Origin: a virus
Lineage: Duplodnaviria; Caudoviricetes
Virus record (IMG/VR): IMGVR_UViG_3300025872_000041
Coordinates: 32,001 to 96,000 of that record
Length of the DNA: 64,000 nucleotides
Strand: one strand, 5' to 3'
The notes under the pieces were generated by a model. That model was not told the DNA's origin, searched no databases, and saw only the letters and a list, made by a program, of their open reading frames with translations. Positions 22,517 through 40,001 of the stretch are shown piece after piece. How positions within the stretch are numbered: position 1 is the first letter of the stretch; every line of letters begins with the position of its first letter. The translations under genes and the position numbers were made by a program.

Positions 22517-23371
22517 ATGCTTACAGAATTAAAATATAAAACCTTTGATGAATTACTTGAAGATGTAAGCGTTGATTTCTCAATGTATTCTTTAGAGGGT
22601 ATGATTGAGCCTCAACAACTTATTAAAGTTGTTCAGAGAATAAATTATGATTTAGGTTTAAGAATATTTAAAACTAAAGAAGAGGTTCTAGACATTGAGA
22701 ATAATCTGGTAAAACTACCAGATGATTTCTATGTAATGAACTATGCTTTACTTTGTGGTCAATACAAAGTTGAACAGCCGGCCATGAGTGGTACTCACGT
22801 TGAGGAAGTTATAATTGACCCGGCAACTGTTACTACTCCATGTGGGGATACTTGTATTACTGATTGTGGTGATCATATGCGTCTTGTACAAAAATTACAG
22901 TATGAGACACGAATATACGATATAAATACACCAATTACATTAACTGGTAACTCTAAAAGTATTTCTTGTGATTGTCCTAATACCTCTTATAAATCACCAT
23001 ACGTTGGTAAACTTAAAGATGGTTTTATATACATGAACTTAGAGACTGGAAAACTATATGTTAACTATCAAGGAGCTTTAGAAGATGAGGATGGTAACTT
23101 ATTAATCTTAGATCACCCAATGATTAATGAGTACTATGAGTATGGTTTAAAGCAAAGAATACTTGAGAATCTTTATATGAATGGAGAGGACGTAATGCAA
23201 AAGTTAAATCTTATTGAACAAAGATTCAGAGGAGCTCGTAACAATGCATTGTCTATTGTAAATACTCCTAACTTTAAAGAGTTATCTAAATTGCATGATA
23301 TGAATAGACGTGCTATGTATGGCAAGTACTACGATCAATTTAAAAGTTACAACTATAATAGTTCTAGATAA
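22517..23371 (+). CDS. Putative tail tubular/ring protein (P22 gp4-like as annotated in crAss-like phages)
   Basis: LDIENNLVKLPDDF and GKLYVNYQG..EDEDGNLLILDHP motifs; immediately precedes the muzzle-sized gene. Confidence 0.6.
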   Translation: MLTELKYKTFDELLEDVSVDFSMYSLEGMIEPQQLIKVVQRINYDLGLRIFKTKEEVLDIENNLVKLPDDFYVMNYALLCGQYKVEQPAMSGTHVEEVIIDPATVTTPCGDTCITDCGDHMRLVQKLQYETRIYDINTPITLTGNSKSISCDCPNTSYKSPYVGKLKDGFIYMNLETGKLYVNYQGALEDEDGNLLILDHPMINEYYEYGLKQRILENLYMNGEDVMQKLNLIEQRFRGARNNALSIVNTPNFKELSKLHDMNRRAMYGKYYDQFKSYNYNSSR

Positions 23372-26300
23372 TGGATGGTAAAACCAGTTTAATTCACACC
23401 GAGCTATATAACAAAGGCTTACTAAAAGATGTAAGTGATGCTTATATTGGTGAGGGATATTGGACACATGCTAGAAATGCTGTAAACAATTCTCCTTCTG
23501 GAGATGTTGGAGTATTAGGTAATGAGCCTAGTAATATAGCTTGTGTAGAAGTACCGTATACTATTATAGGTACTATTTATATAAGTAATGGTAAGTGGGC
23601 TATTTATTCAACCAATGATTTTTCTTCAGAGATTGGTTTGTTTGATGAGAATGGTTGTACATACAATACAATTCATAATGATCCTTTAAACCAGTGTTTT
23701 AAGTTTAATAAGGTTTACCCAATTATTGGGGTATCTAAATATACCTCTGATTGTACTTGGAATCTTTATTGGGATGATGGTAATAATCCATCAAGAACAA
23801 TGAATATTGGTAAGGAGGAAGCTTGGCCTTATAGTCCTTTAAACTGGGAAGGTGTTCCGTATCTTATGAATGACTTAGATCCGGGACCATGTAAAGATGA
23901 AGTATCTAGTGGTGTATTGGATTGTGATAAACTTAGATTAGCAGCGTATGCTAAAACTCCTTGTATTCAAGTAAAGAAGGGTGTTGGTCTAGGTACATTA
24001 CTTAACGGATCATATCAAGCTACAATTGCATATTCTGTAAATGGTATTAAGGTTACAGATTACTTAGCTATTTCTAACGTTCAAGCATTATGGACTCATG
24101 ATAATGTTAATGGTTCTTTAGATATTATCATTAGTGATATAGATACAGACTATGATGAATTTGAATTAGTCTTAATAGGTTTTGTTAATCAACAAGCTGT
24201 AGCAAGAAAGATTGGTTATTATTCTACTCAAACAACTACTATATCTTTAGATGCTGTTGATCCAACATTAGCAACAGTTCCTTTAGAACAAATACCTTTA
24301 CGTACCCCAGCATATGAGAAATCAGCGGGTATGTATAATGTAAATGATTATTTAATTAGAGTTGGTCCTACTACATATGAAGACTTTAATTATCAACCTC
24401 TAGCTAATAATATTACAGCAAAGTGGGTGGGTGTAGAATACCCAGCTGATTATTATTATAAAGGCGGAAATAAACCAACATTTTTAAGAGATGAAGTATA
24501 TAGTTTCTTTATACGATGGATTTATGATACCGGTGATAAATCATCTAGCTATCATATTCCAGGACGTGCTCCAAAGCCCGGAGAACTTAATAATAATTCT
24601 AGCCCTGATCACATTATAGATTTTGGTCAAGAGCAAGAATGGCAAGTAAATAATACAGCTACAATTCTACCTGCTTCTGGAACAACAGATGATGGTGGTC
24701 TTATTAAGTATTCTGGTGAGCTAGCTTATTGGGAATCTACTGAGAAGTATCCTGATAATAAACCAGAGATCTGGGGAGATCTTTGTGCTGAAAACATTAG
24801 ACATCATAAGATGCCTGATGATATTGTAATACCTAATTATAATCCTACTACTAATAGTATTATTATTTTAGGTGTTGAGTTTTCTAATATAGAATTTCCT
24901 GTAGATCAAAACAATCAATACATTACTAGTATTATAGGTTATGAGATTTTAAGGGGTACTAGAGAGGGTAACCGTACTATTATTGCTAAGGGTCTTATTA
25001 ATAACATGCGGGAGTATGATATACCCGATAAGATTGCAGGTGATAAAGTTACAACTGGTTTATATGTAAACTATCCTTATAACTTCTTAGACCATGATCC
25101 ATTCTTAGGTAGAGATAAAGCTACTTTAGATAGACCCGGTAATAGAAGTGTACAAACTAAGGGTGGAGCATTTAGAGATAAAGATAAATATGATAGCACT
25201 GGATTAAGTAATGTAGATGTTACATTATTTGATGGTGTTAAAAGAGATATCTTTTCTTTTCATTCACCTGAGACAACATTTAGAAATCCTTTCTTATCTG
25301 CCACAGAATTAAAAGTTTATGGTGAAGTATATGGTAATGTAATTGGTAGATTTATTCCGGTTGAGAATCATCCTAAAGATAAATTTATAACAGATACAGC
25401 TGTGATACTTTCTTCATTAGCTGGTGTTGCTATTGGTGTGACTGCAGCTAATGCTGCTAATGGAAATGCTTTGGATCAAGGTAAAGCTGCTATTATGACA
25501 GTTGCTTTAGGTAGTATTATAGGAACACCAGTAGCAGGTGCTTCAGGCGCAGTAGTAGGAGCATTTGCTGGCGCAGCTGCTTATGCAATAGGTCGAGCAT
25601 TTTTACTATCTTATTATTGGTTAGAATCAACAAGAAACATAGTTGAAATTATAGAATCTATTGGTAAAAAAAGACAGTTTGCTTATCAGTATGTATCACA
25701 TGGTTTTTATAATAATCTTATAAAAGCTGCTGTTGGTAGCAGAAGAAGGGGTATTAAAAACTCTTTATATCTTGATCCTGTTGTTCAGGAATATGATAAC
25801 ATATATAGAATTAATAATCTTTATAGAGCAAACACTGTTGTTTTAACTACTGAAAGAACAATTAATGATCCAATAACTAAAGACAATACATTATTTACTA
25901 TTGGTCATATTGCACGCTCACAAAATGGCAGACCCGATTTAAGTGTTTATGGTGTTGATGATAAAGGTAATCCTTTTAATGCTAAAGATATCTGGAAAGA
26001 ACCAGAGGCATATACTCAAACATCTGTTACCTCTGCTCATTATGCTGCTTTAAAAATTAAGAATGATAATCTGTATGGTCAACTAGATGGTATTAGACAA
26101 ATACCTGTAGGGTGTATAAACCTTTGGACTATTAATAAAGCTCTTAAAGCTACCTCTGGTTTAGTGTTTGGTGGAGATATGTATGTAAACCGCTACACTG
26201 AAAAATCTACATTCTTCTATTTTACACAGTGGATGCAGAATTTACCAGATAGCACAGAGTGGGATTATAGATTATACAACATGCTTCCTTATCCAAGATA

Positions 26301-28110
26301 TTGGATGAATACTGGAAAGTATAATGTTGGTGATTTATTAGATATTGTTTTTGAGCCAACTAGTGATAGCATTCTACCTAATGATTATCATCATTTAGAT
26401 AGAAGAATGACTTCTGGATTTTTGATGGTTAGGTTTGCTTATATGTATTTGTTTAATTCTGGCGTTAGAGATTTCTATGTAGAGTCAGAAATTAACTTAG
26501 CATATAGAGATTATGATGATAATCCTGGTAAGAGACACTACGATTTTAGAACATATAGTAACTATGAGCAGTTGTTTAGTGCTCCATACATTAAAGATAC
26601 AAACTACTATAAGTATGATTACTCTTTAAGTATTAGTAAACATGTATCAAACTTTGTTTCATGGGGTAATCTTCAACCAAGAATATATGATCCTAATAAT
26701 GTAAGTTGCTTTACCTCTTATGAGACAAGAGTTATTTATTCTTTACAACAACAGTATGAATTAAGAAAAGATAACTGGAGACAGTTCTTAGCAAATAACT
26801 ATTACGACTTTAATTCTAAGGTTGTAACTATGAGAAACTTTGGTAAAACTGGTGCAGTTATTATGTTCAATGATAGCTCTCCTATTTTATTTCAAGGTGC
26901 AGAAACTTTAGATCTTAATGGTGGAACTAAATTAACTATTGGTGATGGTCAGTTATTTAATGGTCAACCATTACAAAATGTAATAAATGTAGATCCTGAG
27001 TTTGAATATGGTAGTTGTCAGAATAGATTATCTGTAATCAATACTCCAGCAGGTTTATTCTATGCAAGCCAAAACCAAGGAAAGGTATTTTCTTTTGGTC
27101 AAGGAATACAAGACATTTCTAAGTCTGGTATGAAGTGGTGGTTTTCACAATACAGTCCTTATGCTGTTCTTGAAGATTTTCCTGATCTAGATCCTATAGT
27201 ATTAGATAATACAATTATTGGGGTTGGATTACAAACTACTTATGATAACATAAATGAGATTCTTTATTTCTGTAAGAAAGACTATAAATTAAAACCTGAG
27301 TTTAAAGGTAAATTTAAAGCCGGAGCACAGAACAAACTCATATCTACAGAGTATGCAGGATTAATAATTAATTTAGGTGATCCTACATATTTTGATGATG
27401 TATCATGGACTGTTAGTTATGATCCTAAAGCAAAAGCATTTATATCTTTTCATGACTGGCATCCAGATTTAGTAATGGCTAGTAAGACATACTATATGAC
27501 AGTTAAGAATAATACTATTTGGAAACATAACTTAGTATGTAACTCTTTCTGTAATTACTATGGTGTTGATTATCCATTTGAGATTGAGTATGTACAGAAC
27601 CAAGGTCAAACCGTTACAACAACTAGATCAGTAGAGTATATTCTAGAATGTTATAAGTATTCTCCTAACTGTTTAGATTATCATCACTTATTAGATGAAA
27701 ATTTTGATCGGGCTATTGTATATAATACAGAACAAATTTCTGGGGACTTAGTATTAAACTTATCTCCTAAGAATAATCCTTATTTAATTAATAACTATCC
27801 TTTAGTAAATGCTAGTAATATTGATATCTTATTTTCTAAAGAAGAACAGAAATATAGATTTAATCAATTCTGGGATATTACTAATGACCGTGGTGAATTT
27901 ACTGGAACTTTTGTACCCATGTGGACTACTGAACCTAACGGTTATATTAGGAATATTAATGCAACTTACGTAAATTATAATAAGGGAGCTACACAAAGAA
28001 AGAAGTTTAGGCATTATATTAATAAGGTTGTATTAAAGAAGCTTATTTCCGGGTCATCTAAATTCTTATTAAAACTCTCCAACAATAAACTACTTGCATC
28101 ATTTAGATAA
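23371..28110 (+). CDS. Tail stabilisation/muzzle protein (P22 gp10-like, crAss-type)
   Basis: 1579 aa, beta-rich; N-terminal KGLLKD...HARNAV...LGNEPSN, FLRDEVYSFFI, GGDMYVNRY and WTVSYDP...ISFHDWHP; synteny with ring and cargo genes. Confidence 0.75.
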   Translation: MDGKTSLIHTELYNKGLLKDVSDAYIGEGYWTHARNAVNNSPSGDVGVLGNEPSNIACVEVPYTIIGTIYISNGKWAIYSTNDFSSEIGLFDENGCTYNTIHNDPLNQCFKFNKVYPIIGVSKYTSDCTWNLYWDDGNNPSRTMNIGKEEAWPYSPLNWEGVPYLMNDLDPGPCKDEVSSGVLDCDKLRLAAYAKTPCIQVKKGVGLGTLLNGSYQATIAYSVNGIKVTDYLAISNVQALWTHDNVNGSLDIIISDIDTDYDEFELVLIGFVNQQAVARKIGYYSTQTTTISLDAVDPTLATVPLEQIPLRTPAYEKSAGMYNVNDYLIRVGPTTYEDFNYQPLANNITAKWVGVEYPADYYYKGGNKPTFLRDEVYSFFIRWIYDTGDKSSSYHIPGRAPKPGELNNNSSPDHIIDFGQEQEWQVNNTATILPASGTTDDGGLIKYSGELAYWESTEKYPDNKPEIWGDLCAENIRHHKMPDDIVIPNYNPTTNSIIILGVEFSNIEFPVDQNNQYITSIIGYEILRGTREGNRTIIAKGLINNMREYDIPDKIAGDKVTTGLYVNYPYNFLDHDPFLGRDKATLDRPGNRSVQTKGGAFRDKDKYDSTGLSNVDVTLFDGVKRDIFSFHSPETTFRNPFLSATELKVYGEVYGNVIGRFIPVENHPKDKFITDTAVILSSLAGVAIGVTAANAANGNALDQGKAAIMTVALGSIIGTPVAGASGAVVGAFAGAAAYAIGRAFLLSYYWLESTRNIVEIIESIGKKRQFAYQYVSHGFYNNLIKAAVGSRRRGIKNSLYLDPVVQEYDNIYRINNLYRANTVVLTTERTINDPITKDNTLFTIGHIARSQNGRPDLSVYGVDDKGNPFNAKDIWKEPEAYTQTSVTSAHYAALKIKNDNLYGQLDGIRQIPVGCINLWTINKALKATSGLVFGGDMYVNRYTEKSTFFYFTQWMQNLPDSTEWDYRLYNMLPYPRYWMNTGKYNVGDLLDIVFEPTSDSILPNDYHHLDRRMTSGFLMVRFAYMYLFNSGVRDFYVESEINLAYRDYDDNPGKRHYDFRTYSNYEQLFSAPYIKDTNYYKYDYSLSISKHVSNFVSWGNLQPRIYDPNNVSCFTSYETRVIYSLQQQYELRKDNWRQFLANNYYDFNSKVVTMRNFGKTGAVIMFNDSSPILFQGAETLDLNGGTKLTIGDGQLFNGQPLQNVINVDPEFEYGSCQNRLSVINTPAGLFYASQNQGKVFSFGQGIQDISKSGMKWWFSQYSPYAVLEDFPDLDPIVLDNTIIGVGLQTTYDNINEILYFCKKDYKLKPEFKGKFKAGAQNKLISTEYAGLIINLGDPTYFDDVSWTVSYDPKAKAFISFHDWHPDLVMASKTYYMTVKNNTIWKHNLVCNSFCNYYGVDYPFEIEYVQNQGQTVTTTRSVEYILECYKYSPNCLDYHHLLDENFDRAIVYNTEQISGDLVLNLSPKNNPYLINNYPLVNASNIDILFSKEEQKYRFNQFWDITNDRGEFTGTFVPMWTTEPNGYIRNINATYVNYNKGATQRKKFRHYINKVVLKKLISGSSKFLLKLSNNKLLASFR

Positions 28111-31100
28111 TGGCAAAGAAAAAACCTATAGTATCTCCTTTAGGTCAGTGGGCTTATCCCGGTGAAGTTACAATCATACCCTCTTCTAACATAACAATGA
28201 AGGGGGTTAATTATCCTGTATTAGGTGTAGATGATTTAGGTAACAGCCAGATGATGATGCCAGGTCAAGATTATAATTTTGCTGGACAATATGTAACTGA
28301 GTATCCTCAGATGCAGTTTGGTGGTATGTCTAAAAGAAAGATAGACAAAATTCTTAATCAGAACAAAGATTTAAACTTTGTTCAAAGAATGTATCAATCT
28401 AATACACCAAGTATAATTATACCCGGTCAGAAATATCCTTCTACACATTTTATGGAAAGCTCTGATGGTCGTGTATATCCTACAGTTGTACAAATGCCTG
28501 ATGGTAGTTTACAATACTTAGGAGATAATGCATATGATTATGCAAATCAGACCGGTCAGTATATTGAGTTTCCTAATGATAGGCAAGCTAGAAGATTTGC
28601 TAAGAGTTATAAAAAAGGAACCGGGGTATTACAAGAGTTTGGTAAAGGTGGTTTAAGACAGTGGTTTGCTGAAGAGTGGACCGATGTTAAGACCGGTAAA
28701 CCTTGTGGTAGGTCAGGTGATGAGAAAGGTTCTAGACCTTATCCTGCATGCAGACCTAAGAAGCGGGTAAATGAAACAACCCCCAAGACTACATCAGAGA
28801 TGTCATCTGCAGAGAAGGCTAAGTTTAAAAGAGAGAAAACATCTGGTAAGCGTATAGACTATAATCATAAGCGTAGACAAGATGGTGGTGAAACAGGATG
28901 GTTAGATGAATATCAAACTGGTGGTAGTGAACAGAATCCTGAAAGAATGCAGGGTATTGATATCAAGCGTAAAAAGAAAAATGTAAGCGATAGTCCTAGA
29001 TATCAGTATGATGATAAAGGTAATTTATTATATACTCCAGAATTAAGTATATGGCCATACGCATCAGATGGTAGTTCAAGAGATGAATTTTTAGTAAATC
29101 CTAAATTATCTGTTCAGAATTTAAATCCGACTTTAGAAGAATTTATAAATGTTGCTTCTCCATATTATCCGATAGATAATAAGTTAGTAACGGATCCAAA
29201 AATTAATTTACAATCCTCTAATTATCAAAGATCTCTAGAACAAGAATATGTTTTACCACAGATAGTTGGTAAGTCATTTGGTAATTTACCTATAGTTAAA
29301 GATGATGGATATTCTCCAAATAGAAGATGGGTCTCTAATTTAAGAGCTAAAGATACTGGTGCAAAATTTGGTAAAGATTCTTATGCCTATGTTTTAAAAA
29401 CTAATCCAAATAATTTAGTAGATTATTCTACAAAAAAGGCTATTGAAGCTGCAGTATCTTCAAATGATGAAGATTTTTATGATTATTTAGCAAAAAATAA
29501 TTATTCACCTAATATGGTGCAGCAACTTGAAAAAAACCGTCCTGATCAAATCTGGAATCGTGCGGAACAAATGCGGGTTGAAATGCGTAATAATCCAGAA
29601 ATAATGTCTTGGGCTAATCTGCATAATGTGGATTTGGGATATAAAGAAAAAGGAAAAGGTGATGATTCTTTTGCTTCTAAAATTCCGGAATCTATTTATG
29701 CAAATAGATTAGTAAGAGCAGGATTACCTACAAATAGACCTGACTATGAATATAAACCGATGGAAACTTATATAGTACAAGATCCTTCTAAGTTTGATCT
29801 TGCTGGTTATTTTCCAATGGGTTCTATAGTAAAAGATGCTGAGCAAAAAGTACTTAATAAAAAAATACCAGGAAAATTAAAAAGAGAATATATCTATAGT
29901 AATAGTCCAGAATATTTTGAAAAAGAAGCTTATATAAAAGATGAGATGGCAAGAAGAATGGGTATTAATCCAAGTGCTTTTGATTCTGGAGAGTATCTTA
30001 TTCACTATAATCAATCACCTATAACAGAATATACACCAGGTAAGAAATATGGTGGATGGTTAGAAGAGTATCAACGTGGTGGAACATTACCTCCTATATA
30101 TACATCTAATCCAAGAAAAGTACAATTTTATCAGGATAGTTTAAATTTATATAATAAATATCAACCATCCTTTGATAAATATAAAAACTGGACTAGACTA
30201 AATAATATACAAACTGCTTCTTTACAAGGTAATGATTTATTTAATCAGCATTGGGGTCCTTTTAAACCTAAAGGTCCTTCTCCTTATAATGAGCATATAG
30301 TAATAAAACCTGTAGAAGAAATGATGCATCATTATCTAAGACCTCGTGGGGGTCCAGGTAATTTTACTCATCTTACTGAAAGACCAGGAAATAATTATTT
30401 AGAAACTAAACTATCTGATTATCTTACACCTAATTCAAGAGAAACTCGTCTTTGGCATGCAGTTGATAATAATGGTAGGTACTTACCACTGGGTGTTGGT
30501 ATAACTCCTTCTCAAAAAAGAAGTAATGATGCTAGAAGAAGTAGAACGTGGCCTGTTAGTGTAACTAAAAAAGATTTTCTAGATTTAGGATTAACTGGTG
30601 TTACTCCAGATTTAAATTCTGTTTTTAGATTTAAAAAACCAGTACAACCTTATATTTTAACAAATCCAGAAATTACTCCTAAAGTAGTAGAACCAGTTTC
30701 AGTAGTAGAACCACCTAAGCCTTCTTTATTTGTATCTAATATAGATAGGGACATGTATACTCCCGGTGGAGGAATGGCTAGAGAATATAACATTGGTGTT
30801 ACATTACAAGATGGCAACCGGAAATCATTCAGAACTGAAAAAGAATTTCAGGATTGGAAGGCTGCAAATAACTTAGATATTAGTAAAGCTAAAGTAACTG
30901 AAGGTAGAGGTTATAGTTATGACTATCCAGAAAATAAGAAGTATGGTGGATGGTTGAATAAATATCAAACAGGTGGTTGGGCTGGTTGGACACCTAATGT
31001 AGGTAAGCCATATATGAGAACTAGTCCTGCAGGTAATGCCGGCTACACTGATAATACTAGAGTAGTTAATCAGAATACAAATGTTAGTGCAGAGAATAGA

Positions 31101-33914
31101 AAAGCAGCGGAAGCAGCTGAATATGCTAAACGTGTAGGTAGTATTAGTCAGGGTAAAACTAAATCTGCTTATGAAAAAGCAAGAGAAGCTAGTTCATTAG
31201 TAGCACAAGCAGAACAACGTAAAGGTTCTGCTGATCCTTTAGACTATGTATTAGATATGGTTAATCCGGCTACGTATGGATTTGCCGGAGCTGATCTAAT
31301 AGGTAATACTGCAATGGGTGTAAACAACTTAGCTAAAGGTAATTTTAGTGAAGCTGCTGGTAATGCTTTTGATGCTGGTATGAATGCTTTGTATTTATTG
31401 CCTGCAAAAGGTGTTGCTAAAGCTATTGCAAGTCCTATGGCATTTAGACCTGTAGAAGGTATGATGTATAGAGGTCTTGGTAAAGAAGGTTTTAGAGATG
31501 CTATAGAGTCAGGTGTATTTAGACCTAAACAACTTAATTATTCTCCCGGTAGATCTCTTGCTGAAAAAGCTAACTCTCCAAAACAATTTAGTAGTACATA
31601 TTATGCACCAAGTAAAAAATTTGGAGTTGTAGAAAGATATGGTTCAGATTATGTAGCTGAAGTACCTTATAATGAAGCTGATTTTTTTAGAAGGTATAGT
31701 AAAAGAAATGATTGGAGTTATTCTACTCCAAGACAAATTCCTATTACTGAAGGAAGAATATTAAAGAAAGATTGGTTACTAGGATATAAACCAATAGATG
31801 TTTCTAATGCACAATCTTCTATGAATCTATCTAAAATGGATGGTAGCTATTTAGTTCGTGAACTTTTAGGAGAAGCAATTAAAGGTAATCAAAATAGAAA
31901 AGCAATTGCTGAAGGAAATGCTTGGTTAAAAAATTGGATTGATGATCCAATAACTCAAACTAAGATAGATACTGATTTAGGTTGGATTCCACAAAGAAGT
32001 AATATTTTAAAAGATAAATTTAGCTTAGGCTATGAACAAGCTAAATCATTTACACCTGTTTCAAAAGAATATCCTTTTTCAGAACAATTAAACGATTATT
32101 TTATTCGTGTTAAACCCCATATACATTCTGGTAATAGTGGTGTAAGTTATTTACACAGTAGAGATCCCTATTCAAGATCAATATCAGAACAATTTAATGA
32201 TCCTAGATTAAAAGCTAGTTGGATTAGTAGAAATCCTAGTATATCTAAACCAGTAAGAAGATCTACTACTGTTCATGAAGGAACTCATGACTGGACCTCT
32301 GATTTTTTATTGAGAGAATCAGGACAAATGGGTGACATAAGAAATTTATATTCAGATGATATTAGAAATCTCAGTGATCAATGGAAAAGTTTAAGAAATA
32401 GCGGTATTAATCCTTCTGAAGTAATGGGTCGTGAAAATGCTACTTTAGGTTATTTAGCAGATCCAACTGAAGTACATGCTAGAATTATGGAATTAAGGCA
32501 ACTTATGAAAATGACTCCGGAACAATCTGTAATGGTTACTCCTGAAAAAGCTGCTGATATAATAACAAAAGTACAAAACCCAAAAAATGCAAAATTTGTA
32601 GATCCTAGATTTCTTGATGTTATAGATAAAGATCCTAAAAAATTAGCAACTTTATTTAATAGACTATGGGCGGTTCCTGCTGTAGCTACAGCATCTCAAT
32701 TACTAGAACAAAAGAATGGTGGTTGGTTAGATACATATCAAGATGGTGGAGAGAATCTTCCAGAGTTAAATTCTAAAATAGATATTGCTAACTTCTATAA
32801 GAATCCTTTAAGTGAGAAGTATGGTATCTACCAGGATCCTACAGATAATACATACAAGTATTATTCAAAGTCTGCAGAGGAACCAAACATCCCATTAAAA
32901 ACATTTGATTTTACTAATCTGGGTAATATTGCAAGAAGAATTGATAAAAAGGAAATAACTACTCCACAACCAATTAAGTATAATTCTAAAATGATAGATT
33001 ATGCAGCTGATCAGGATTACTTAACAGCATTGGCTACTGAAGAATTTCCTATTATTCCACCATCTTTTAAAGATGTTTTAAGTAATATTCCTAAATTAGA
33101 AACAATAAATACTATTCCTAAACCTAAAGCGTTACCTAATAAACAACCTGCAGTCAATAACGCTTTTACATTTGATAGCAATTATTGGAATAGTGCTGAT
33201 GTACAAGCTGAGGTTTTTAATAGACAATTAAAAGATAATAAATGGTATGGTGAGTTTGATAAACGTGGTGATAATGTATTAAATAGAACTGATGTAAAAA
33301 GAAATTATGACTCTGAAGTTTTCTTACAGAATTTAGCAACTCCAAATTCTGTAGTTATAGATATTGGATCTGCTTTAGGTAACAATAATCCAAAACTTGC
33401 AGGGGTATCTGTATATGAATTAGCTTCTAATCCTAAAATAAAAAGTAAGAATATTAAAGTTATAGCAACAGATATTCCTTCAGAAGTAAAAGGATTTGAA
33501 GAATTAAAAAGACGCGGTAATAGTGTGTATCCTATTGATTATGCTCAAGTACCAGAAACATTTAATACTCCTGTAAGAGATATTTTAAAAGCTAAAAATC
33601 TAGAGAATGTTAAAGATGTATATCTTAGAGCTGCTAATAGTATAGATTTGCTTATGAATGTACAGGAAACTAGTGAACATTTTAAACATATAAGTAGTAC
33701 TTTAAAAGATAAAAACGTAACTTACTTATATAACAATACCATATTATATAAACCAGCTGGTTCTACTAAATTTAAAAAATTAGGTAATTTAAATAATAGT
33801 GCTTTTGATCATAGATCACCAAGTTGGAAAAATAATCCTAATAGAAATCATTATACACTCTTACCAACTAATAAAACCGGTGGTGAAACGGGTTGGCTTA
33901 ATAAATACAAATAA
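28110..33914 (+). CDS. Modular (polyvalent) putative virion cargo polyprotein with GGWLxxYQxGG linkers
   Basis: Five GG(ETG)WLxxY linkers plus QFGG and GKGG separate unrelated modules, including a zincin HEGTH, an ART-like YRG segment and a methyltransferase-like DIGSALG segment. Confidence 0.75.
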   Translation: MAKKKPIVSPLGQWAYPGEVTIIPSSNITMKGVNYPVLGVDDLGNSQMMMPGQDYNFAGQYVTEYPQMQFGGMSKRKIDKILNQNKDLNFVQRMYQSNTPSIIIPGQKYPSTHFMESSDGRVYPTVVQMPDGSLQYLGDNAYDYANQTGQYIEFPNDRQARRFAKSYKKGTGVLQEFGKGGLRQWFAEEWTDVKTGKPCGRSGDEKGSRPYPACRPKKRVNETTPKTTSEMSSAEKAKFKREKTSGKRIDYNHKRRQDGGETGWLDEYQTGGSEQNPERMQGIDIKRKKKNVSDSPRYQYDDKGNLLYTPELSIWPYASDGSSRDEFLVNPKLSVQNLNPTLEEFINVASPYYPIDNKLVTDPKINLQSSNYQRSLEQEYVLPQIVGKSFGNLPIVKDDGYSPNRRWVSNLRAKDTGAKFGKDSYAYVLKTNPNNLVDYSTKKAIEAAVSSNDEDFYDYLAKNNYSPNMVQQLEKNRPDQIWNRAEQMRVEMRNNPEIMSWANLHNVDLGYKEKGKGDDSFASKIPESIYANRLVRAGLPTNRPDYEYKPMETYIVQDPSKFDLAGYFPMGSIVKDAEQKVLNKKIPGKLKREYIYSNSPEYFEKEAYIKDEMARRMGINPSAFDSGEYLIHYNQSPITEYTPGKKYGGWLEEYQRGGTLPPIYTSNPRKVQFYQDSLNLYNKYQPSFDKYKNWTRLNNIQTASLQGNDLFNQHWGPFKPKGPSPYNEHIVIKPVEEMMHHYLRPRGGPGNFTHLTERPGNNYLETKLSDYLTPNSRETRLWHAVDNNGRYLPLGVGITPSQKRSNDARRSRTWPVSVTKKDFLDLGLTGVTPDLNSVFRFKKPVQPYILTNPEITPKVVEPVSVVEPPKPSLFVSNIDRDMYTPGGGMAREYNIGVTLQDGNRKSFRTEKEFQDWKAANNLDISKAKVTEGRGYSYDYPENKKYGGWLNKYQTGGWAGWTPNVGKPYMRTSPAGNAGYTDNTRVVNQNTNVSAENRKAAEAAEYAKRVGSISQGKTKSAYEKAREASSLVAQAEQRKGSADPLDYVLDMVNPATYGFAGADLIGNTAMGVNNLAKGNFSEAAGNAFDAGMNALYLLPAKGVAKAIASPMAFRPVEGMMYRGLGKEGFRDAIESGVFRPKQLNYSPGRSLAEKANSPKQFSSTYYAPSKKFGVVERYGSDYVAEVPYNEADFFRRYSKRNDWSYSTPRQIPITEGRILKKDWLLGYKPIDVSNAQSSMNLSKMDGSYLVRELLGEAIKGNQNRKAIAEGNAWLKNWIDDPITQTKIDTDLGWIPQRSNILKDKFSLGYEQAKSFTPVSKEYPFSEQLNDYFIRVKPHIHSGNSGVSYLHSRDPYSRSISEQFNDPRLKASWISRNPSISKPVRRSTTVHEGTHDWTSDFLLRESGQMGDIRNLYSDDIRNLSDQWKSLRNSGINPSEVMGRENATLGYLADPTEVHARIMELRQLMKMTPEQSVMVTPEKAADIITKVQNPKNAKFVDPRFLDVIDKDPKKLATLFNRLWAVPAVATASQLLEQKNGGWLDTYQDGGENLPELNSKIDIANFYKNPLSEKYGIYQDPTDNTYKYYSKSAEEPNIPLKTFDFTNLGNIARRIDKKEITTPQPIKYNSKMIDYAADQDYLTALATEEFPIIPPSFKDVLSNIPKLETINTIPKPKALPNKQPAVNNAFTFDSNYWNSADVQAEVFNRQLKDNKWYGEFDKRGDNVLNRTDVKRNYDSEVFLQNLATPNSVVIDIGSALGNNNPKLAGVSVYELASNPKIKSKNIKVIATDIPSEVKGFEELKRRGNSVYPIDYAQVPETFNTPVRDILKAKNLENVKDVYLRAANSIDLLMNVQETSEHFKHISSTLKDKNVTYLYNNTILYKPAGSTKFKKLGNLNNSAFDHRSPSWKNNPNRNHYTLLPTNKTGGETGWLNKYK

Positions 33915-33919
33915 CTAAA

Positions 33920-36436
33920 ATGAAAGATAAATTTTTACAAATGGCTGGTGTTAATTCTGAGGAAGAATTCTATTCTATGTTTCCTACAGAAGAAGCATTC
34001 TTTCAAGCTTATCCTGAAGCCAGAGAAATGAAAAAGGGTGGTAATGTACCCACTAATCCAGAACTATATTCTCGTGTTAAATCTGAGGCTAAATCTAAAT
34101 TTGATAGATGGCCTTCAGCTTATGGTTCTGCATGGCTTGTTAAGACTTACAAGAGCCGTGGTGGTGGATATAGAAAAGCTCAAACCGGTGGTGCTATGGG
34201 ACAAGAAATGTTTCAGTATCCTAACTATGAATCTCTTGGTAGCTACTTTGATAAAGTAAATGAGTATAATAAAAATAATATTCAAGAGCCTGTTGGTGAT
34301 TTCTTAAAAAATACTGCAATGGCTATAGGTCAAGGAATGGATAATGGTGAAGGAAATGGTGAAGATAAAATGAAAATGGCTAATCTTGCTATGAATTTTA
34401 TGGGTATGCCAGCTATGGGTATGGGTGGTGTAGGTATGATGATGCGTGATAACTATTATGATGAAGGTGGTGAAATGGCAATGGGTCAGATAATGGCTAT
34501 GAATGATAAGATTGCTAGATTACAAAACTTTATTAATGCTGAGTCAGAAGTTGAACCCTGGGTAGCTAGTAAATTAACTTTAGCTGATGATTATATTTCT
34601 TCTGTTGCTGATTACATGCAATTTAATGAGGGTTCTCAAGAAGAAGGAGAGGAAGAAGAGGAAGACATTGACATGAACATGGGTGAGATGGAAGAGATGA
34701 AGATGGGTGGTATTCCTCAGCGTTATAAGAACCGGGGATTTACTAAAGTAGGTGCTAAAAGAAAATCTGATAGAGCTGGTAAGAAATGGATGGTATTAGC
34801 TAAGAAAGGTGACAAGTATAAAATTGTACATGGTGGTTACACTGGTATGAAAGATTTTAGTCAACATGGTTCTGAGAAGCGTAAAGATAATTTCTGGAAT
34901 AGAATGGGTGGTAAGAACTCAGCTAAGGCTACAGATCCATTCTCTCCTTTATACTGGCACAAGCGTTTTGGTACTTGGGCTAAAGGTGGTGAAATGATGC
35001 CTCCTGAGATTGCACGTGCACGTTTTGCAGCTGCCGGTAACTTAGATAAATTAGATGATTATGGTTATGCTATGGGTGGATATATTCCTGAAATGGCTGC
35101 TGGTGGTTGGGCACAACAAGCTGCTATTGCCATTGCAATGAAAAAAGCTGGTAAGAAACCTAAGTCTGCAAAAGGTGGTGAACCACAAAATGCTGGCTTC
35201 CAAGCATTACCTCCTTATGTACAAGCTAAGATCTTATCTAATATGGCAGAAGGAGGAACTTATGGTTCTGCTCCTATTAATACATTCATGTCTCCTGGTA
35301 TTGATAATGATCCTAGGTTTGAACAATATTATAATCAACAGATACAACAATTTAATAAAGCTGGTGTAAAACAAGTACCATCACGTAATGATATTTATTC
35401 TTACTATCAGTCTTCTAATCCTCAATCAGCCGTAGATCAAACAGGACGTATGATTTTTAATTCTGCACCAGGAACTATTTCTAGCTCAACTACATTTACA
35501 CAAGCTGTAGATCCTAAAACAGGTAAAGTATTAAATCAAGGTTCTAACTTAGAAAAGGCTGCATTTGATCAACAAGCTCGTAGATTTCAAGAAGGTGGTC
35601 CTGCTTTAACAGAAGAGCAAAAAGCTGCGGCTGCTGAAGCTGCTGCTAAGAAAAAGAAACGTAATGATACTATGACTGGTATTGGTTTAGGTATTGGAAC
35701 TGCTGCTGGTGTTATTGCTTCTGAAATCAGAGCTGCTCGTAAGCAGAGAGGTTATGAAGAGTTTATGAATTCTAATGATCCAAGACTTGGTACTGGTCAA
35801 ACTCCATCAAATAAAGAACTTCGTAAAATGGGTAGAAGAATGTATGGTGGTGATATAGATATGTATGGTGGTCAAATGGATATGGATGCTATGTATAATA
35901 TGATGAAGGGTGGTTCTACATTTAGTGGAAATGCATGGTATGGTAAAGGTGGACAACCTTGTTATGAATGTGGTGGTAATGTATATCAAGAAGGTGGACA
36001 ACAAGATGAGGTTATGCAAGCTATTCAGATGTATGCTGAGATGACTCAAACGGATCCTGAGCAACTTATGGCAGAACTACAATCTTTACCTCCTTTGGAG
36101 CAACAAGAGGTTATTCAAAAGATTATGCAAGCTATTCAAGAAGCACAAACTGGTCAAATGAAGAACGGTGGTATCTATATTAATCCAGCTAACAAAGGTA
36201 AGTTTACTGAGTCAGCTAATAGAGCCGGTATGGGTGTGCAAGAGTTTGCTAGAAAGGTACTTGCAAATAAAGAGGACTATAGTGCAACACAAGTAAAAAG
36301 AGCTAACTTTGCTAGAAACGCTGCTAATTGGAAGAAACAATTTGGCGGCATGACTCAAGGTGCAGAATTAGAATTACATCCTGATGAGATTCAAGCATTG
36401 ATTGATCAGGGTTATGGTATTGAGTATTTAGATTAA
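33920..36436 (+). CDS. Met/Gly-rich polyprotein of short modules separated by xxxGG motifs
   Basis: About 16 motifs (MKKGG, AQTGG, YDEGG, MKMGG, WAKGG, YAMGG, MAAGG, SAKGG, MAEGG, FQEGG, MYGG x2, YQEGG, MKNGG, KQFGG and others). Confidence 0.75.
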   Translation: MKDKFLQMAGVNSEEEFYSMFPTEEAFFQAYPEAREMKKGGNVPTNPELYSRVKSEAKSKFDRWPSAYGSAWLVKTYKSRGGGYRKAQTGGAMGQEMFQYPNYESLGSYFDKVNEYNKNNIQEPVGDFLKNTAMAIGQGMDNGEGNGEDKMKMANLAMNFMGMPAMGMGGVGMMMRDNYYDEGGEMAMGQIMAMNDKIARLQNFINAESEVEPWVASKLTLADDYISSVADYMQFNEGSQEEGEEEEEDIDMNMGEMEEMKMGGIPQRYKNRGFTKVGAKRKSDRAGKKWMVLAKKGDKYKIVHGGYTGMKDFSQHGSEKRKDNFWNRMGGKNSAKATDPFSPLYWHKRFGTWAKGGEMMPPEIARARFAAAGNLDKLDDYGYAMGGYIPEMAAGGWAQQAAIAIAMKKAGKKPKSAKGGEPQNAGFQALPPYVQAKILSNMAEGGTYGSAPINTFMSPGIDNDPRFEQYYNQQIQQFNKAGVKQVPSRNDIYSYYQSSNPQSAVDQTGRMIFNSAPGTISSSTTFTQAVDPKTGKVLNQGSNLEKAAFDQQARRFQEGGPALTEEQKAAAAEAAAKKKKRNDTMTGIGLGIGTAAGVIASEIRAARKQRGYEEFMNSNDPRLGTGQTPSNKELRKMGRRMYGGDIDMYGGQMDMDAMYNMMKGGSTFSGNAWYGKGGQPCYECGGNVYQEGGQQDEVMQAIQMYAEMTQTDPEQLMAELQSLPPLEQQEVIQKIMQAIQEAQTGQMKNGGIYINPANKGKFTESANRAGMGVQEFARKVLANKEDYSATQVKRANFARNAANWKKQFGGMTQGAELELHPDEIQALIDQGYGIEYLD

Positions 36437-36440
36437 TACA

Positions 36441-39400
36441 ATGAAAAAGAAAGTAAGGGTTAAGAGCTTACCTAAAGCTCAAACTGGTATGCAACCACCT
36501 ATGGTTTTAACACCAGAGCAGAAAACCATATGGTTAAAAAATCAAGGTATGTTTGGTACTCCAACTACTTTTGAAAATCCATTTGAATTAAGCAATCCTA
36601 GTTTTATTTATAATACTAAAAAACCTGCTACATCTGGTGAGTTTGTAAAATCTCCGGGTATGGGTCCTATTGGTGCAGATGATTATTATGCAAACTTAGC
36701 CCAACAGAATATTGCTGCTCCAGCAGGTACCAGATTTGATAAAGACTTTGGTTATGCTCCGGGTACTGCAATGCCTTCTGATTTTGTTAAAAAACCTAAA
36801 GAAAAAGGTAATCCTTATGTTGGTCCTATGCTATTAGCAGGAACGGATATATTCCGTGGTTTAGCAAATCAAATAGATAATAGATTTGCAAAGCGTGATT
36901 TAAGAGATCAATTTTTATCAGATAATTTAACATACGCAAGAGAGGAGAGTAACTCTGGTAATAGAGGTGACTATAACTTTAATGAATTTGGTTTTGGTCC
37001 TAGTTTTAGGCCAGATGATTATATAAAAGGTGATTACAATAAAATTGCCCAAATGGGTGGAGAAATGAAAAGAAAAGTAAAAATTACAAGTTTACCACAA
37101 GCTGGATATGGTGGTAGTCAGAATCAAAATGCAGTTAACCAGTTATATGGTAACTCAGCTTATATGGTTAATAAGTTTTCTGGAGCAGAACAAAAAGAAC
37201 CAGAAGCTGATTATAATCAGACACTAGGTCCTGATCCTAGATCTATCTCTGTACTAGAAGCAGAGAAAGGAGAGACATTAATACGTAAAGGTACTAATAC
37301 TGCAATTCCTGAATTCTTTAAGATTGGTGGTAAGCGTCACTCTCAAGGTGGTACACCTTTATCTGGAGAAAAAGCTACTCCAGATAGTTTTATTTATTCG
37401 GATACTAAATCTATGAAGATTAAAGATCCTGCTATCTTAGAATCTTTTGGTTTTGCTGCTAAGAAAGGTGGTTATACCCCAGCTAAAATTTCTAAGAAGT
37501 TTGATCTTAATAATAAAGAATTGCGTGAAGGTTTATATTCTGATAGTGATCCATTACGTAAAAAGACATCTGTTATGATGGCTGATAATTATATTTCTAA
37601 CTTAGGTAAGTTAGCTCTTGTACAAGAATCACAGAAAGGATTTCCTCAAGGTGTTCCACAGATTGCTATGCCGTACATGAATAAAGTAGGATTAGATCCT
37701 GCACAGTTCTTACCACCATCTCCTGAACAAGGTATGATGATGGCTATGTATGGTGGTATTCCTAAAGCTCAAATTGGACAGAGTGTTGATCCAACCGGTA
37801 TGTCTAATGTTCCTGTAAATAACTTACCTCAGTATGAAATTGATTTGTTAAAATTTAAACAAAGAGCTCTTGATCAAAATCAACAATTACCATCTACTCA
37901 AGAATATATGAAGGCACGTGAACAATATAATCGTGCTAAGATGGAAAACTCTAGTATCTTTAATCCATTTAATTGGGATGATTATATTAACTATGGTCTT
38001 ACCGGTCAGTTTGAAAATATGGGTGATTCTTATTCTAAATATAATGGTGAAGGTCCTATGACTACTACTATTAGATATGGTACTGATCCTGTATTTATGG
38101 CAAGTGCAGCAGCTCCAGTTGGAAAGGTATTAGGTGCTGTTGGTAAAAGATTAGGAACAATAGGAGCAGGATCACCAGCTATTGATTTTTTAAAAACTGC
38201 ATCAGTTCCAGATATATTAGAAGCTAGTGGTATAGCATTAAAAGATATACCTAGTAATTTAACTTCTATTGCTGATGTAACAATACCAATTATTCAAAAA
38301 TTAGCAGCTCCTGGTGCTTTAGCATTTCTTATTTCATCAGCTAATAATAATGAACAATTAACTAATGAACAACAAGTAGCTTTATTAAAAAGACTAGATA
38401 CCGCAGCAGTAAATGAATTAATGGAATCTCCTGTTGCTTCTAAAATTTCTAGCGATACTTTAATAGAAGCAAGTAAAGAAAATCCTAATATTGATGTTGC
38501 TAAAATACCAGAAGTAACTATTAAAGCTAAAACTAAAGGTGATACAACTAAATCTAGTACAGGATATACTGCACCAGACGGATCTAAGGTTGTATTTGAA
38601 TATGGTGGTGAATCATTATATCAAGCTGGTGGAGAAAAAGGAACATTTTTAGCAAAACATACTGATGCTTCAGGAAAAGAATATAGTTCTTATTTGAAAG
38701 GTGATAAAGTTGTATTAGTAGATAGTAATAATGAAGTAGTTAGTACTAGACCCGCTACAGAAAAAGATAAACCAGCTATTCAAACTTACGATACAGAAGA
38801 AGAAAAACTTTTAAAGAGTATTGCTCCAAATGTTATTCTACCCAAAGATTATGTAGAAGGAAATCAACCAGGTAAAGTTGCAAAAATTCCTGGAACCTTT
38901 GGAAGATTTGATAAAGCTAGTGCAGATAAAAACTGGTCATGGTATAATAAACCTATAGATTGGACAAATCAATCACAGGTTGGTGCAGCTCAATTAGCAT
39001 ATAATAGAGAGATGACCAACCGATTTATAAAAGCTGGTTATACTCCTGAAGAAGCTGCAAGGTATGTTAAAACAATTGGTTTTGATGAAACTAAAAAATC
39101 AGGTGTTCCAAATGCTTATGATGAAAAAGCTGGTAAATATGTTGAAACAAGAGTTGTATTTGATGTTCCACAAAAACCAAAAAAACCAGATACTCCCAGA
39201 GATCCTCTTGATCCAGGTGAATTAATTCCTCCACCAATTCCAAGAAGACCTATTGGTTTTTATCCTCAAGATGTATTAAATACTGCAGCTGCTGTTGGTG
39301 ATTTAGCAAGTATTAATAGATACTATCCTAGAATGGCACAATTTACTGCTGAACCTATGGAGCCTACATTTTATGATCCTAATAGAGAGTTAGCTGCTAA

Positions 39401-40001
39401 TGCTGAGATGGCTAATATTGCTGCAGCTAATTTAGCGCAGTTTACTGGACCACAAGCTTTCAATACAAGATTCTCTGAGGTACAAGGTAAAGGTTTAGCC
39501 AATGCTGCTAATATCTTAGGTAGATATAATAACTTAAACGTTGGTGTAGCTAATCAGTTTGAACAAGCTAACAAGCAATTAATCAATGAAGCTAACTTTA
39601 GAAATCAGTTAGCCGCTAATGACTTCTACGATAAGACAGTTACTACTAATCAGCAATATGATAATGCTAGAAGAGCTGGTAGAAGAGAGGCTGTAGATTA
39701 TGTAAATGCTGCATTAGAAAATAGATTTATTACAGATCAAATGAATAGTCTATATCCTAATTTCTTTGTTGATCCAGCAGCTCTTAAAACTTATTATACT
39801 CCAGGTAGAAAAATTACAGCTTCACAAAAGGCTAAAGATTTAAAACAGTATTTTCTTGATATGGGTATTGATACTACTAATCCTACAGTTCAAGCTGCTA
39901 TGGTTAGAGGTATTATGGGTGATGTAGATGTAGATGAGCGTGGTAATATCTTAGCAGCACAATCTGCAATGTCTAACAGAAGAAAAACTAAGGGCTCTTA
40001 A
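36441..40001 (+). CDS. Putative virion cargo/ejection protein
   Basis: LEAEKGE...GGKRHSQGGTPL motif, further xxxGG linkers, and an Asn/Gln/Ala-rich helical C-terminus; lies between the muzzle and RNAP genes. Confidence 0.65.
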   Translation: MKKKVRVKSLPKAQTGMQPPMVLTPEQKTIWLKNQGMFGTPTTFENPFELSNPSFIYNTKKPATSGEFVKSPGMGPIGADDYYANLAQQNIAAPAGTRFDKDFGYAPGTAMPSDFVKKPKEKGNPYVGPMLLAGTDIFRGLANQIDNRFAKRDLRDQFLSDNLTYAREESNSGNRGDYNFNEFGFGPSFRPDDYIKGDYNKIAQMGGEMKRKVKITSLPQAGYGGSQNQNAVNQLYGNSAYMVNKFSGAEQKEPEADYNQTLGPDPRSISVLEAEKGETLIRKGTNTAIPEFFKIGGKRHSQGGTPLSGEKATPDSFIYSDTKSMKIKDPAILESFGFAAKKGGYTPAKISKKFDLNNKELREGLYSDSDPLRKKTSVMMADNYISNLGKLALVQESQKGFPQGVPQIAMPYMNKVGLDPAQFLPPSPEQGMMMAMYGGIPKAQIGQSVDPTGMSNVPVNNLPQYEIDLLKFKQRALDQNQQLPSTQEYMKAREQYNRAKMENSSIFNPFNWDDYINYGLTGQFENMGDSYSKYNGEGPMTTTIRYGTDPVFMASAAAPVGKVLGAVGKRLGTIGAGSPAIDFLKTASVPDILEASGIALKDIPSNLTSIADVTIPIIQKLAAPGALAFLISSANNNEQLTNEQQVALLKRLDTAAVNELMESPVASKISSDTLIEASKENPNIDVAKIPEVTIKAKTKGDTTKSSTGYTAPDGSKVVFEYGGESLYQAGGEKGTFLAKHTDASGKEYSSYLKGDKVVLVDSNNEVVSTRPATEKDKPAIQTYDTEEEKLLKSIAPNVILPKDYVEGNQPGKVAKIPGTFGRFDKASADKNWSWYNKPIDWTNQSQVGAAQLAYNREMTNRFIKAGYTPEEAARYVKTIGFDETKKSGVPNAYDEKAGKYVETRVVFDVPQKPKKPDTPRDPLDPGELIPPPIPRRPIGFYPQDVLNTAAAVGDLASINRYYPRMAQFTAEPMEPTFYDPNRELAANAEMANIAAANLAQFTGPQAFNTRFSEVQGKGLANAANILGRYNNLNVGVANQFEQANKQLINEANFRNQLAANDFYDKTVTTNQQYDNARRAGRREAVDYVNAALENRFITDQMNSLYPNFFVDPAALKTYYTPGRKITASQKAKDLKQYFLDMGIDTTNPTVQAAMVRGIMGDVDVDERGNILAAQSAMSNRRKTKGS

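Follow-up and report, generated by a model that had tools for sequence, protein, structure and literature searches.

Gly-Gly joints in three adjacent genes of a crAss-like phage

Three adjacent open reading frames (ORFs) of 1934, 838, and 1186 amino acids (aa), here called cargo-1, cargo-2, and cargo-3, follow the muzzle gene in a 64,000-nucleotide window of the virus record IMGVR_UViG_3300025872_000041 (bases 32001–96000 of 114,558 bp). By its sequence, the source of the window is a crAss-like phage. The three ORFs are punctuated by a short motif that ends in Gly-Gly. An original prediction, made from the letters of the window, took this motif for the linker of a modular virion payload, and the positions and sizes it gave for the three ORFs proved exact. 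A strict form of the pattern, [MYFAK][AQKE]xGG, was scored against a chance level from 5000 residue shuffles per protein and gave 7, 11, and 5 matches in cargo-1, cargo-2, and cargo-3 (23 in total, rather than the >25 copies proposed), with 43 Gly-Gly dipeptides across the three ORFs. Shuffle means were 0.55, 1.24, and 0.62 (about 2.4 in total), and the observed counts were reached in 0, 0, and 3 of 5000 shuffles, figures that flatter the pattern since it was fitted by eye to these very sequences. Independent contrasts with other ORFs and with relatives were therefore given more weight. The 80 other non-nested ORFs of the genome (31,627 aa) hold four matches, compared to 23 in the 3,958 aa of the cargo proteins, and the flanking muzzle and 853-aa ORFs hold none, in line with the predicted confinement of the motif to cargo genes. 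The same contrast was found in seven distinct related loci, with 2–11 matches per cargo gene and 0–1 in flanking genes; the sole exception is the 702-aa cargo-1 of locus L001, which has none.

Gly-Gly dipeptides were also compared to the number expected from Gly content. Cargo-2 has 22 versus 10.1 expected (reached in 0 of 5000 shuffles), the excess in cargo-1 is marginal (13 versus 8.3, reached in 258), and cargo-3 has no excess (8 versus 6.9, reached in 1893). Gly-Gly pairs spaced 6–13 residues apart number 4, 6, and 2 in the same proteins in the order cargo-1, cargo-2, cargo-3, where 0.27, 0.89, and 0.31 are expected. Sequence context and Gly-Gly pairing are non-random in all three ORFs.

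The motif has a sharper form in cargo-1, GG-(ETG)-WLxxYQ-x-GG, with four internal copies and a truncated copy at the C-terminus (Table 1). Genome-wide, WLxx[YF] flanked by Gly-Gly occurs six times, five of them in cargo-1, and copies within one gene vary at the x positions. The joints of cargo-2 and cargo-3 are simpler (x-x-GG), and some are paired. In this minimal joint, positions −1 or −3 tend to be aromatic or Met and position −2 tends to be Gln or Lys, and the residue following Gly-Gly is not conserved. All 23 pattern matches are internal in this window, the WLxKY tail copy of cargo-1 is C-terminal, and N-terminal copies occur only in relatives. Most joints lie at boundaries of unrelated segments, as had been proposed for all of them; one (GG305 of cargo-2) falls inside a DUF5754 domain, and the boundary between an ART-like stretch and a zincin-like cassette in cargo-1 has no Gly-Gly.

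Conservation, cassette exchange, and terminal copies

Cargo-2 has 931 homologues at E ≤ 1e-5, of which the best 120 were aligned with the query (121 sequences, 53%–95% identical to the query). Identity was 0.94 for Gly-Gly residues, 0.78 for other residues, and 0.79 for other Gly, and 17 of the 22 Gly-Gly sites were fully invariant. This conservation supports selection of the joint peptides at the protein level. Among internal gaps of at least 8 columns, 335 of 446 junctions fall within 2 aa of Gly-Gly (19% expected), and 36 distinct gap blocks include 20 within 2 aa and 25 within 3 aa.

Whole modules are gained, lost, and moved at these sites. Residues 447–747 of cargo-2, between GG445 and GG750, are absent in L001 and L006; the DUF5872 half-module of cargo-2 is wholly absent in L005, where the gap spans Gly-Gly to Gly-Gly; and one module is differently placed in L001 and L006. 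In cargo-1, aa 74–173 are an insertion between two Q-x-F..GG sites. Cargo-1 ranges from 509 to 1986 aa in eight phages (this one and seven relatives), in which the constant 70-aa module and the tail are kept and whole cassettes are exchanged between joints. The first 73 residues are 76%–90% identical in L001, L004, L005, and L006. An HExxH signature is present in cargo-1 of this phage, L004, and L008; no cargo gene of L001, L002, L005, L006, or L009 has one, and all five retain the joints. Module content therefore varies among homologues while the joints persist, as the original prediction required, and homologues are not collinear across the linkers, with modules absent, inserted, or relocated at the joints. 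The modular-payload reading of the three cargo genes is supported.

The joints recur well beyond the closest relatives. A 583-aa cassette of cargo-1 has 479 relatives at E ≤ 0.001, with its sub-modules at varied positions in proteins of 152–2617 aa. In 150 listed representatives there are 461 pattern matches versus 70.5 expected, and 114 GG..WLxxY copies were found in 58 proteins; 48 of the 150 representatives end in GGWLxKY[KQ]. Homologues bear YkuD, LysM, and SET domains. A DNA scan of viral contigs for GGWL[ND]KY[KQ] plus a stop codon found 70 loci, all with a true stop. These loci yielded 67 tagged ORFs among 540 ORFs of at least 60 aa; 43 are complete (129–2042 aa), and 27 of the 43 also start with WLxx[YF] followed by Gly-Gly. 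A muzzle homologue (about 22%–32% identical to the one in the window) lies upstream of the tagged gene in 39 loci, the N-terminus of a cargo-2 homologue lies just downstream in 42, and the constant module was matched in 57 of 70, usually at aa 7–72. The WLxKY core may be N-terminal, internal, or C-terminal, and Gly-Gly is always on the side that faces the protein body. A short conserved peptide joined to the body by a flexible spacer, the layout of terminal cargo-loading peptides of the encapsulin kind, is found at a terminus of this protein, of 48 among the 150 representatives, and of the 67 tagged ORFs.

Several further arrangements were observed among the tagged loci. In distant relatives (L019–L088), the 70-aa constant module, N-terminal in this phage, often stands directly before the C-terminal tag, and one relative of 193 aa is scarcely more than a head tag, the constant module, and a tail tag. 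The N-termini of tagged ORFs in L026, L042, L052, L070, L072, L076, L080, L082, and L085 have, in place of the WLxKY head, a segment of the form Cys-x-Cys-Gly-His-Ser-Trp ... Cys-His-Ile-Cys-Gly-Lys followed by Gly-Gly, which looks like a zinc ribbon. A scan of 185,579 prokaryote genomes for the C-terminal tag returned three matches, two of them by chance in ORFs of 8–9 aa. The third (L090) is a 703-aa ORF with head and tail tags on a 13-kb contig of a Schleiferiaceae metagenome-assembled genome (GC content of 0.33). A phage fragment may have been binned there, which would hint, if only faintly, at Flavobacteriales as the hosts.

Gene context and encoded modules

A portal gene (915 aa, phrog_6547, E 7e-90) lies upstream. 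Downstream of the cargo genes, a 4552-aa ORF has BLASTP matches to gp47 (E 1e-6) and gp50 (E 3e-20) of crAss001, and a 1762-aa ORF matches gp49 (E 3e-32). The two ORFs produced no family at 1e-5 in a PHROGs search, and their relation to RNA polymerase (RNAP) genes is based on these matches to crAss001 proteins. With the muzzle upstream (PF25731) and relatives of gp47, gp49, and gp50 downstream, the three ORFs hold the position of the crAss001 cargo proteins, including gp45, as had been predicted from the sequence. Products of the crAss001 cargo block were detected in virions by mass spectrometry, according to the text of PMC10172136. From synteny with that block and the virion mass spectrometry of that phage, we infer that the three genes encode virion cargo proteins that are packed and delivered with the particle. 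A megablast search of the 12-kb cargo region against a phage collection returned no match.

The 4552-aa ORF (window positions 42637–56295) joins a gp47-like region (aa 1954–2093) and a gp50-like region (aa 3108–3809) in a single frame. Related loci have separate ORFs at this position, of about 1306–1470 aa and then at least 979 aa, as if genes of the virion RNAP block had been fused or split.

Table 1. Features of the cargo locus (positions in the window; HSP, high-scoring segment pair; AF2, AlphaFold2; pLDDT, predicted local distance difference test; SAM, S-adenosylmethionine)
Feature	Position	Strand	Remarks
Muzzle gene	23371..28110	+	1579-aa ORF; PF25731 crAss_MUZ, E 6.4e-33; 0 pattern matches, 5 Gly-Gly
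Cargo-1, 1934 aa	28110..33914	+	Directly after muzzle gene; constant N-terminal module, then variable cassettes between GG-WLxxYQ-x-GG joints
Constant module m3, aa 1-70	28110..28319	+	Ends QMQF-GG; only part common to all cargo-1 relatives
DUF5872 C-terminal half, aa 158-247	28581..28850	+	Pfam PF19197, E 1.6e-11, profile positions 36-113 of 116; entered via FGK-GG at aa 180-181
Joint 1, GG-ETG-WLDEYQT-GG, aa 259-272	28884..28925	+	HSPs to relatives end at aa 261, 272, 289
Joint 2, GG-WLEEYQR-GG, aa 648-658	30051..30083	+	Recognized in the sequence
Joint 3, GG-WLNKYQT-GG, aa 946-956	30945..30977	+	HSPs to L008 end at aa 956, 958
Zincin-like metallopeptidase cassette (predicted), aa about 1243-1521	31836..32672	+	HEGTH aa 1389-1393 (32274-32288); third ligand Glu aa 1454
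Joint 4, GG-WLDTYQD-GG, aa 1537-1547	32718..32750	+	HSPs to L002, L005, L008 begin at aa 1522-1534; AF2 pLDDT <50
Last cassette, aa 1548-1923	32751..33878	+	Possible class I SAM methyltransferase, lead only
C-terminal tail, GG-ETG-WLNKYK + stop codon	33879..33911	+	Joint cut short at protein end
Cargo-2, 838 aa	33920..36436	+	22 Gly-Gly; string of mini-modules, Met/Gly/Gln-rich; hydrophobic Gly/Ala-rich stretch near aa 585-601
DUF5872 N-terminal half, aa 44-86 of cargo-2	34049..34177	+	Pfam PF19197, E 2.4e-8, profile positions 1-43; between GG40 and GG81
DUF5754, aa 281-329 of cargo-2	34760..34906	+	Pfam PF19058, E 9.5e-7; between GG263 and GG330, GG305 inside
C-terminal module, aa 750-838 of cargo-2	36167..36433	+	Starts at GG750; also in cargo-1 of gut Crassvirales, including crAss001 gp45
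Cargo-3, 1186 aa	36441..40001	+	8 Gly-Gly within first 731 aa; C-terminal part conserved

The HEGTH cassette of cargo-1 is predicted to be a zincin-like metallopeptidase. An alignment of 35 sequences shows near-invariance of the residues H, E, H, and E, and 10-residue blocks over residues 151–420 of the AF2 model have a mean pLDDT of 86–98. VIA-align placed five M13-type zinc metallopeptidases first, at middling scores (Z 5.7–6.4), and 8 of its top ten (Z 6.4–4.6) are zinc metallopeptidases (ranks 1–7 and 9); the other two are an unannotated lipoprotein at rank 8 and thermolysin at rank 10 (Z < 5). Foldseek of the same model against PDB returned nothing at E ≤ 0.001. The last cassette has atlas feature scores of 0.88–0.91 to methyltransferase-named clusters, a lead only, and no Pfam match at E ≤ 1. 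Eight Gly-Gly-bounded pieces gave one chance-level match in Pfam at E ≤ 1, and a phmmer search of PDB sequences with the 583-aa cassette gave none. Atlas scores of 0.79–0.81 to ART-PolyVal and LPD23 clusters are likewise leads only, and the ART-like stretch was not confirmed (pLDDT near 50, no Pfam match at E ≤ 1).

The AF2 model of cargo-2 (50 sequences) consists mostly of low-confidence short helices with a mean pLDDT of 38.9, a quality that does not permit a fold search and at most hints at disorder. The C-terminal module of cargo-2 has tblastn matches in 20 phage records. By BLASTP, aa 721–817 match residues 350–437 of crAss001 gp45 (E 3.7e-5), with further matches in cr108_1 (E 4e-19) and cr127_1 (E 1e-16). 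This module of ~55–90 aa (GG-I-x-I-N-P-A-N-K-G-K-F-T...) recurs in cargo-1 of three Crassvirales families (window 36167–36433; L013 8101–9930; L014 5995–7725; L015 3988–6516); it is mid-protein in gp45 and cr108_1 and at the N-terminal end of a cr127_1 protein annotated as 'putative endolysin/lysozyme'. The two halves of DUF5872 are split over two genes in reversed order, with the C-terminal half in cargo-1 and the N-terminal half in cargo-2, each bounded by Gly-Gly, and in the family model the halves meet at Gly-Gly. A Met-rich, Gly/Glu-rich low-complexity stretch followed by a Glu run (window 34300–34700, aa about 130–260 of cargo-2) is kept in all seven aligned orthologues. Residues 309–400 of cargo-3 align weakly to gp45 473–544 (hhalign probability 7.9%, E 0.0044, 72 columns), and cargo-3 may be the counterpart of crAss001 C1 (gp45).

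Proposed hinges, handles, and processing sites

The only structure, that of crAss001, shows parts of one cargo protein in both tail and head. According to the text of PMC10172136, from which, rather than from coordinates, the structural statements on gp45 are taken, residues 425–552 form one compact portal-bound domain, residues 214–245 form a helix bound to the tail barrel, and one chain is proposed to bridge the 420 Å between both pieces. Gp45 (842 aa) contains 20 Gly-Gly, including GG-WLNTQ-GG at 427–435, and gp46 contains one; the cargo-1 proteins of cr108_1 and cr127_1 have the same simpler form of the trait as gp45. Both resolved pieces lie within Gly-Gly-bounded segments (209–210/263–264 and 427–428/562–563). 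The portal-bound piece begins at the motif and by sequence spans three sites (GG427–428, GG434–435, and GG447–448). The words 'cleav' and 'proteoly' do not occur in the main text of PMC10172136, and the available text of this paper and of a Crassvirales review makes no mention of glycine joints or cargo cleavage. The text of PMC6235969 lists protein bands of 15 to >300 kDa.

We give about an even chance to a reading in which the joints are uncleaved hinge and docking elements that also serve as points of module exchange. The cargo proteins would be beads on a string, with small modules or whole enzyme cassettes linked by short peptides. The full joint of cargo-1 would place a six-residue amphipathic core between two Gly-Gly hinges, and this core would also cap the C-terminus and, in many relatives, the N-terminus. 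Joints would stay uncleaved within the particle, the Gly-Gly pairs would be hinges that keep the chain extended in storage and during its passage through the portal and tail, and the WLxKY core would dock, as a small handle, at a site that is repeated inside the particle. Flexibility is suggested by the low pLDDT at joint 4 and by the low-confidence model of cargo-2. Cargo-1 would be a plug-in payload carrier, with the zincin-like and possible methyltransferase cassettes (YkuD, LysM, and SET in relatives) as payload, and the constant 70-aa module probably provides incorporation into the particle. The joints are proposed to be sites at which modules are gained, lost, moved, and swapped because any in-frame junction at a joint would yield a working protein. 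A capsid-loading tag, which the original prediction had offered as an alternative role, is compatible with WLxKY at both termini and at joints with Gly-Gly facing the body.

Several points weigh against the hinge-and-handle reading. Non-cleavage would be carried over from one distant relative by way of the text of a paper. A plain hinge needs neither an invariant Gly-Gly nor a conserved WLxKY, so something must recognize the peptide, and a protease is one candidate. The WLxKY core occurs in cargo-1 only (five of the six Gly-Gly-flanked copies) and the RNAP-related cargo proteins are without it, so it is not a general packaging signal; the handle would also need a docking partner. The homologues aligned for cargo-2 are so close to it that invariance carries less weight than in a more divergent alignment, and MAFFT may draw gap ends to conserved Gly-Gly anchors and inflate the junction statistic.

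The pattern could have been read by eye into Gly/Met/Lys-rich low-complexity sequence without specific meaning. It was defined only after the sequences were read, and Gly content accounts for the Gly-Gly of cargo-3 and nearly for that of cargo-1. We give this artefact next to no credence, since it is already contradicted by the composition-preserving shuffles, the excess of paired Gly-Gly, the near-invariance across 121 homologues, the recurrence in the 150 representatives, and the exact terminal copies in 67 ORFs of distant phages. In a DNA-level reading, GGTGG and its flanks would be a recombination or microhomology site that drives cassette shuffling, with the peptide as a tolerated by-product. 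Joints flank every cassette, including the first and last, and indels coincide exactly with them. In this window, 40 of the 43 cargo Gly-Gly are encoded GGTGG[T/A], and the first codon is GGT in 40 of 43, compared to 176 of 236 single Gly in the same genes. The GGTGG pentamer also lies within the E. coli Chi site. Single Gly is GGT in 75% of cases in the cargo genes and in 59% in the other ORFs of the window. The bias of the window was not seen in the wider motif set, in which 92 distinct GGWLxxY copies have mixed Gly codons (GGT 49%, GGA 23%, GGC 22%). For Asp, Lys, Tyr, and Glu, synonymous codon use in these copies is like that in the remainder of their ORFs; it differs for Gly (GGC 0.22 versus 0.04), Leu (TTA 0.74 versus 0.51), and Asn (AAC 0.45 versus 0.25). 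The commonest 21-mer occurs only 10 times, copies within a gene vary at the x positions, and it is amino acids rather than bases that are conserved. A DNA-level origin is therefore improbable.

Processing is a stronger contender. A protease of phage or host origin would cleave polyproteins after Gly-Gly or next to it, either inside the particle or once they are injected, so that cassettes are released and WLxKY peptides excised, with the terminal ones as a short leader and tail. In favor of this are the invariant Gly-Gly and the residue preferences upstream of it, the position of joints in low-confidence linkers, and the likeness of the N-terminal copy in relatives (about 12 aa, with Gly-Gly at its end) to a short leader. 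HExxH domains occur in cargo-1 of three of the eight compared phages, here with a conserved active-site signature and a zincin-like predicted fold, and zincin-like peptidases were proposed to process polyvalent proteins (Iyer et al. 2017; text of PMC5512222). The original prediction called for a C39-, C48-, C5-like or zincin protease in the genome, and of these one zincin-like domain was found, itself a variable cassette. Searches of all six reading frames of the whole genome gave no match at E ≤ 1 for Peptidase_C39 (PF03412; the control was positive in 7 of 14 genomes, and a host enzyme would escape the search), for C5 (PF00770) and C48 (PF02902), the two families searched among Gly-Gly-specific cysteine proteases other than C39, or for S78 (PF04586), the one prohead protease type searched, with T4-, ClpP-, and phiKZ-type enzymes not covered. 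No such protease is among the 25 of 75 PHROG families listed for the 36 ORFs of the virion block, which is not exhaustive. HExxH is confined to the zincin-like cassette and is missing from the cargo genes of five of the eight phages, which retain joints; the residue after Gly-Gly is not conserved; and the portal-bound gp45 domain is reported as one piece over three Gly-Gly sites in a main text that makes no reference to cleavage (PMC10172136). Because the searches for C39, C48, C5, and S78 were negative, HExxH is variable, the gp45 domain is described as unbroken, and the peptide is conserved, uncleaved hinges with a handle are favored over protease sites, which were one of two roles put forward in the original prediction and which we consider unlikely.

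A bolder and tentative extension is that GG-WLxKY-GG serves a large clade of crAss-like phages as a dedicated address label. The six-residue handle would be read by a repeated particle site or by a processing enzyme, such that any cassette between two labels would be loaded, carried, and injected.

Short signals on packed proteins are known from other systems. The internal or ejection proteins of T4 and phiKZ/SPN3US are packed in the head and ejected, and a short recurring motif marks their processing by a prohead protease. In T4 a short N-terminal targeting sequence directs internal proteins into the head. The protease in T4/phiKZ-type systems is identified and essential, and its sites end in Glu, whereas the motif here is based on Gly-Gly and no such protease was found (S78 search and 25 of 75 listed PHROG families). 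In polymorphic toxins (CdiA, Rhs), a short conserved peptide borders the constant and exchangeable parts and coincides with the points at which cassettes are swapped by recombination. These are secreted bacterial toxins with one variable C-terminal domain, in contrast to a phage protein, cargo by its synteny, that has several serial cassettes and motif copies at both ends. Double-glycine leaders with C39 and Gly-Gly-specific viral cysteine proteases share Gly-Gly at a putative processing point and, in relatives, a short N-terminal segment ending in Gly-Gly, but no C39, C48, or C5 domain was found in this genome, and the copies stand mostly at internal positions or at the C-terminus.

The closest known kinds are the polyvalent proteins (Iyer, Burroughs, Anand, de Souza, and Aravind 2017, PMC5512222) and crAss001 C1 (gp45; Bayfield et al. 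2023, PMC10172136; PDB 7QOG and related). Polyvalent proteins are described in the text of PMC5512222 as single polypeptides of phages or conjugative elements with 2–15 unrelated domains in mosaic, fast-changing architectures; the phage proteins are very large, are thought to travel with DNA, and have zincin-like peptidases among their enzymatic domains. Mosaic architecture is evident here in the cassettes exchanged in eight phages and in the 583-aa-cassette sub-modules found in 479 proteins, and the near-invariant HExxH and Glu, the confident model, and the zinc metallopeptidase matches at middling Z speak for a hallmark domain. The YkuD, LysM, and SET domains of homologues and the atlas leads to ART-PolyVal and LPD23 clusters point the same way. 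No Pfam model named in PMC5512222 matched cargo-1 at E ≤ 1 or 30 of its homologues at 1e-4, and the pLDDT of the ART-like part is near 50. The main text of PMC5512222 does not contain the words 'linker', 'glycine', or 'crAss', so no conserved junction peptide is described in it; the layout here, in contrast, is regular, with a constant module, cassettes between identical joints, and terminal joint copies. Gp45 resembles the cargo genes in its position just after the muzzle, its Gly-rich composition, its Gly-Gly-bounded resolved pieces, and the small module that ends cargo-2. It differs in being a single 842-aa protein without enzyme cassettes, compared to three genes and 3,958 aa here; overall sequence similarity is confined to the one module, and the match of cargo-3 to the portal-binding domain is weak. 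No description of the joint motif was found in the searchable literature, and relative to those texts three features appear to be new: the regularity of the joint peptide, its copies at the termini, and the array of cassettes that it separates.

How crAss-like phages choose, pack, and eject large protein cargo is the question for which the joint peptide gives a concrete handle. It marks module borders, caps a variable cargo protein, and persists between phages whose muzzles are only about a quarter identical, and it can be mutated, fused to reporters, and sought in proteomes. The joints also define a fast-evolving cassette locus (a predicted peptidase, a possible methyltransferase, and cell-wall enzymes) with likely functions in host takeover or anti-defence. 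If the peptide is a loading signal, foreign proteins could be packed into phage particles with its help. If it is an address label, cargo-1 would be a natural plug-and-play array of protein-delivery cassettes, and its diversity would record the arms race between these phages and their hosts.

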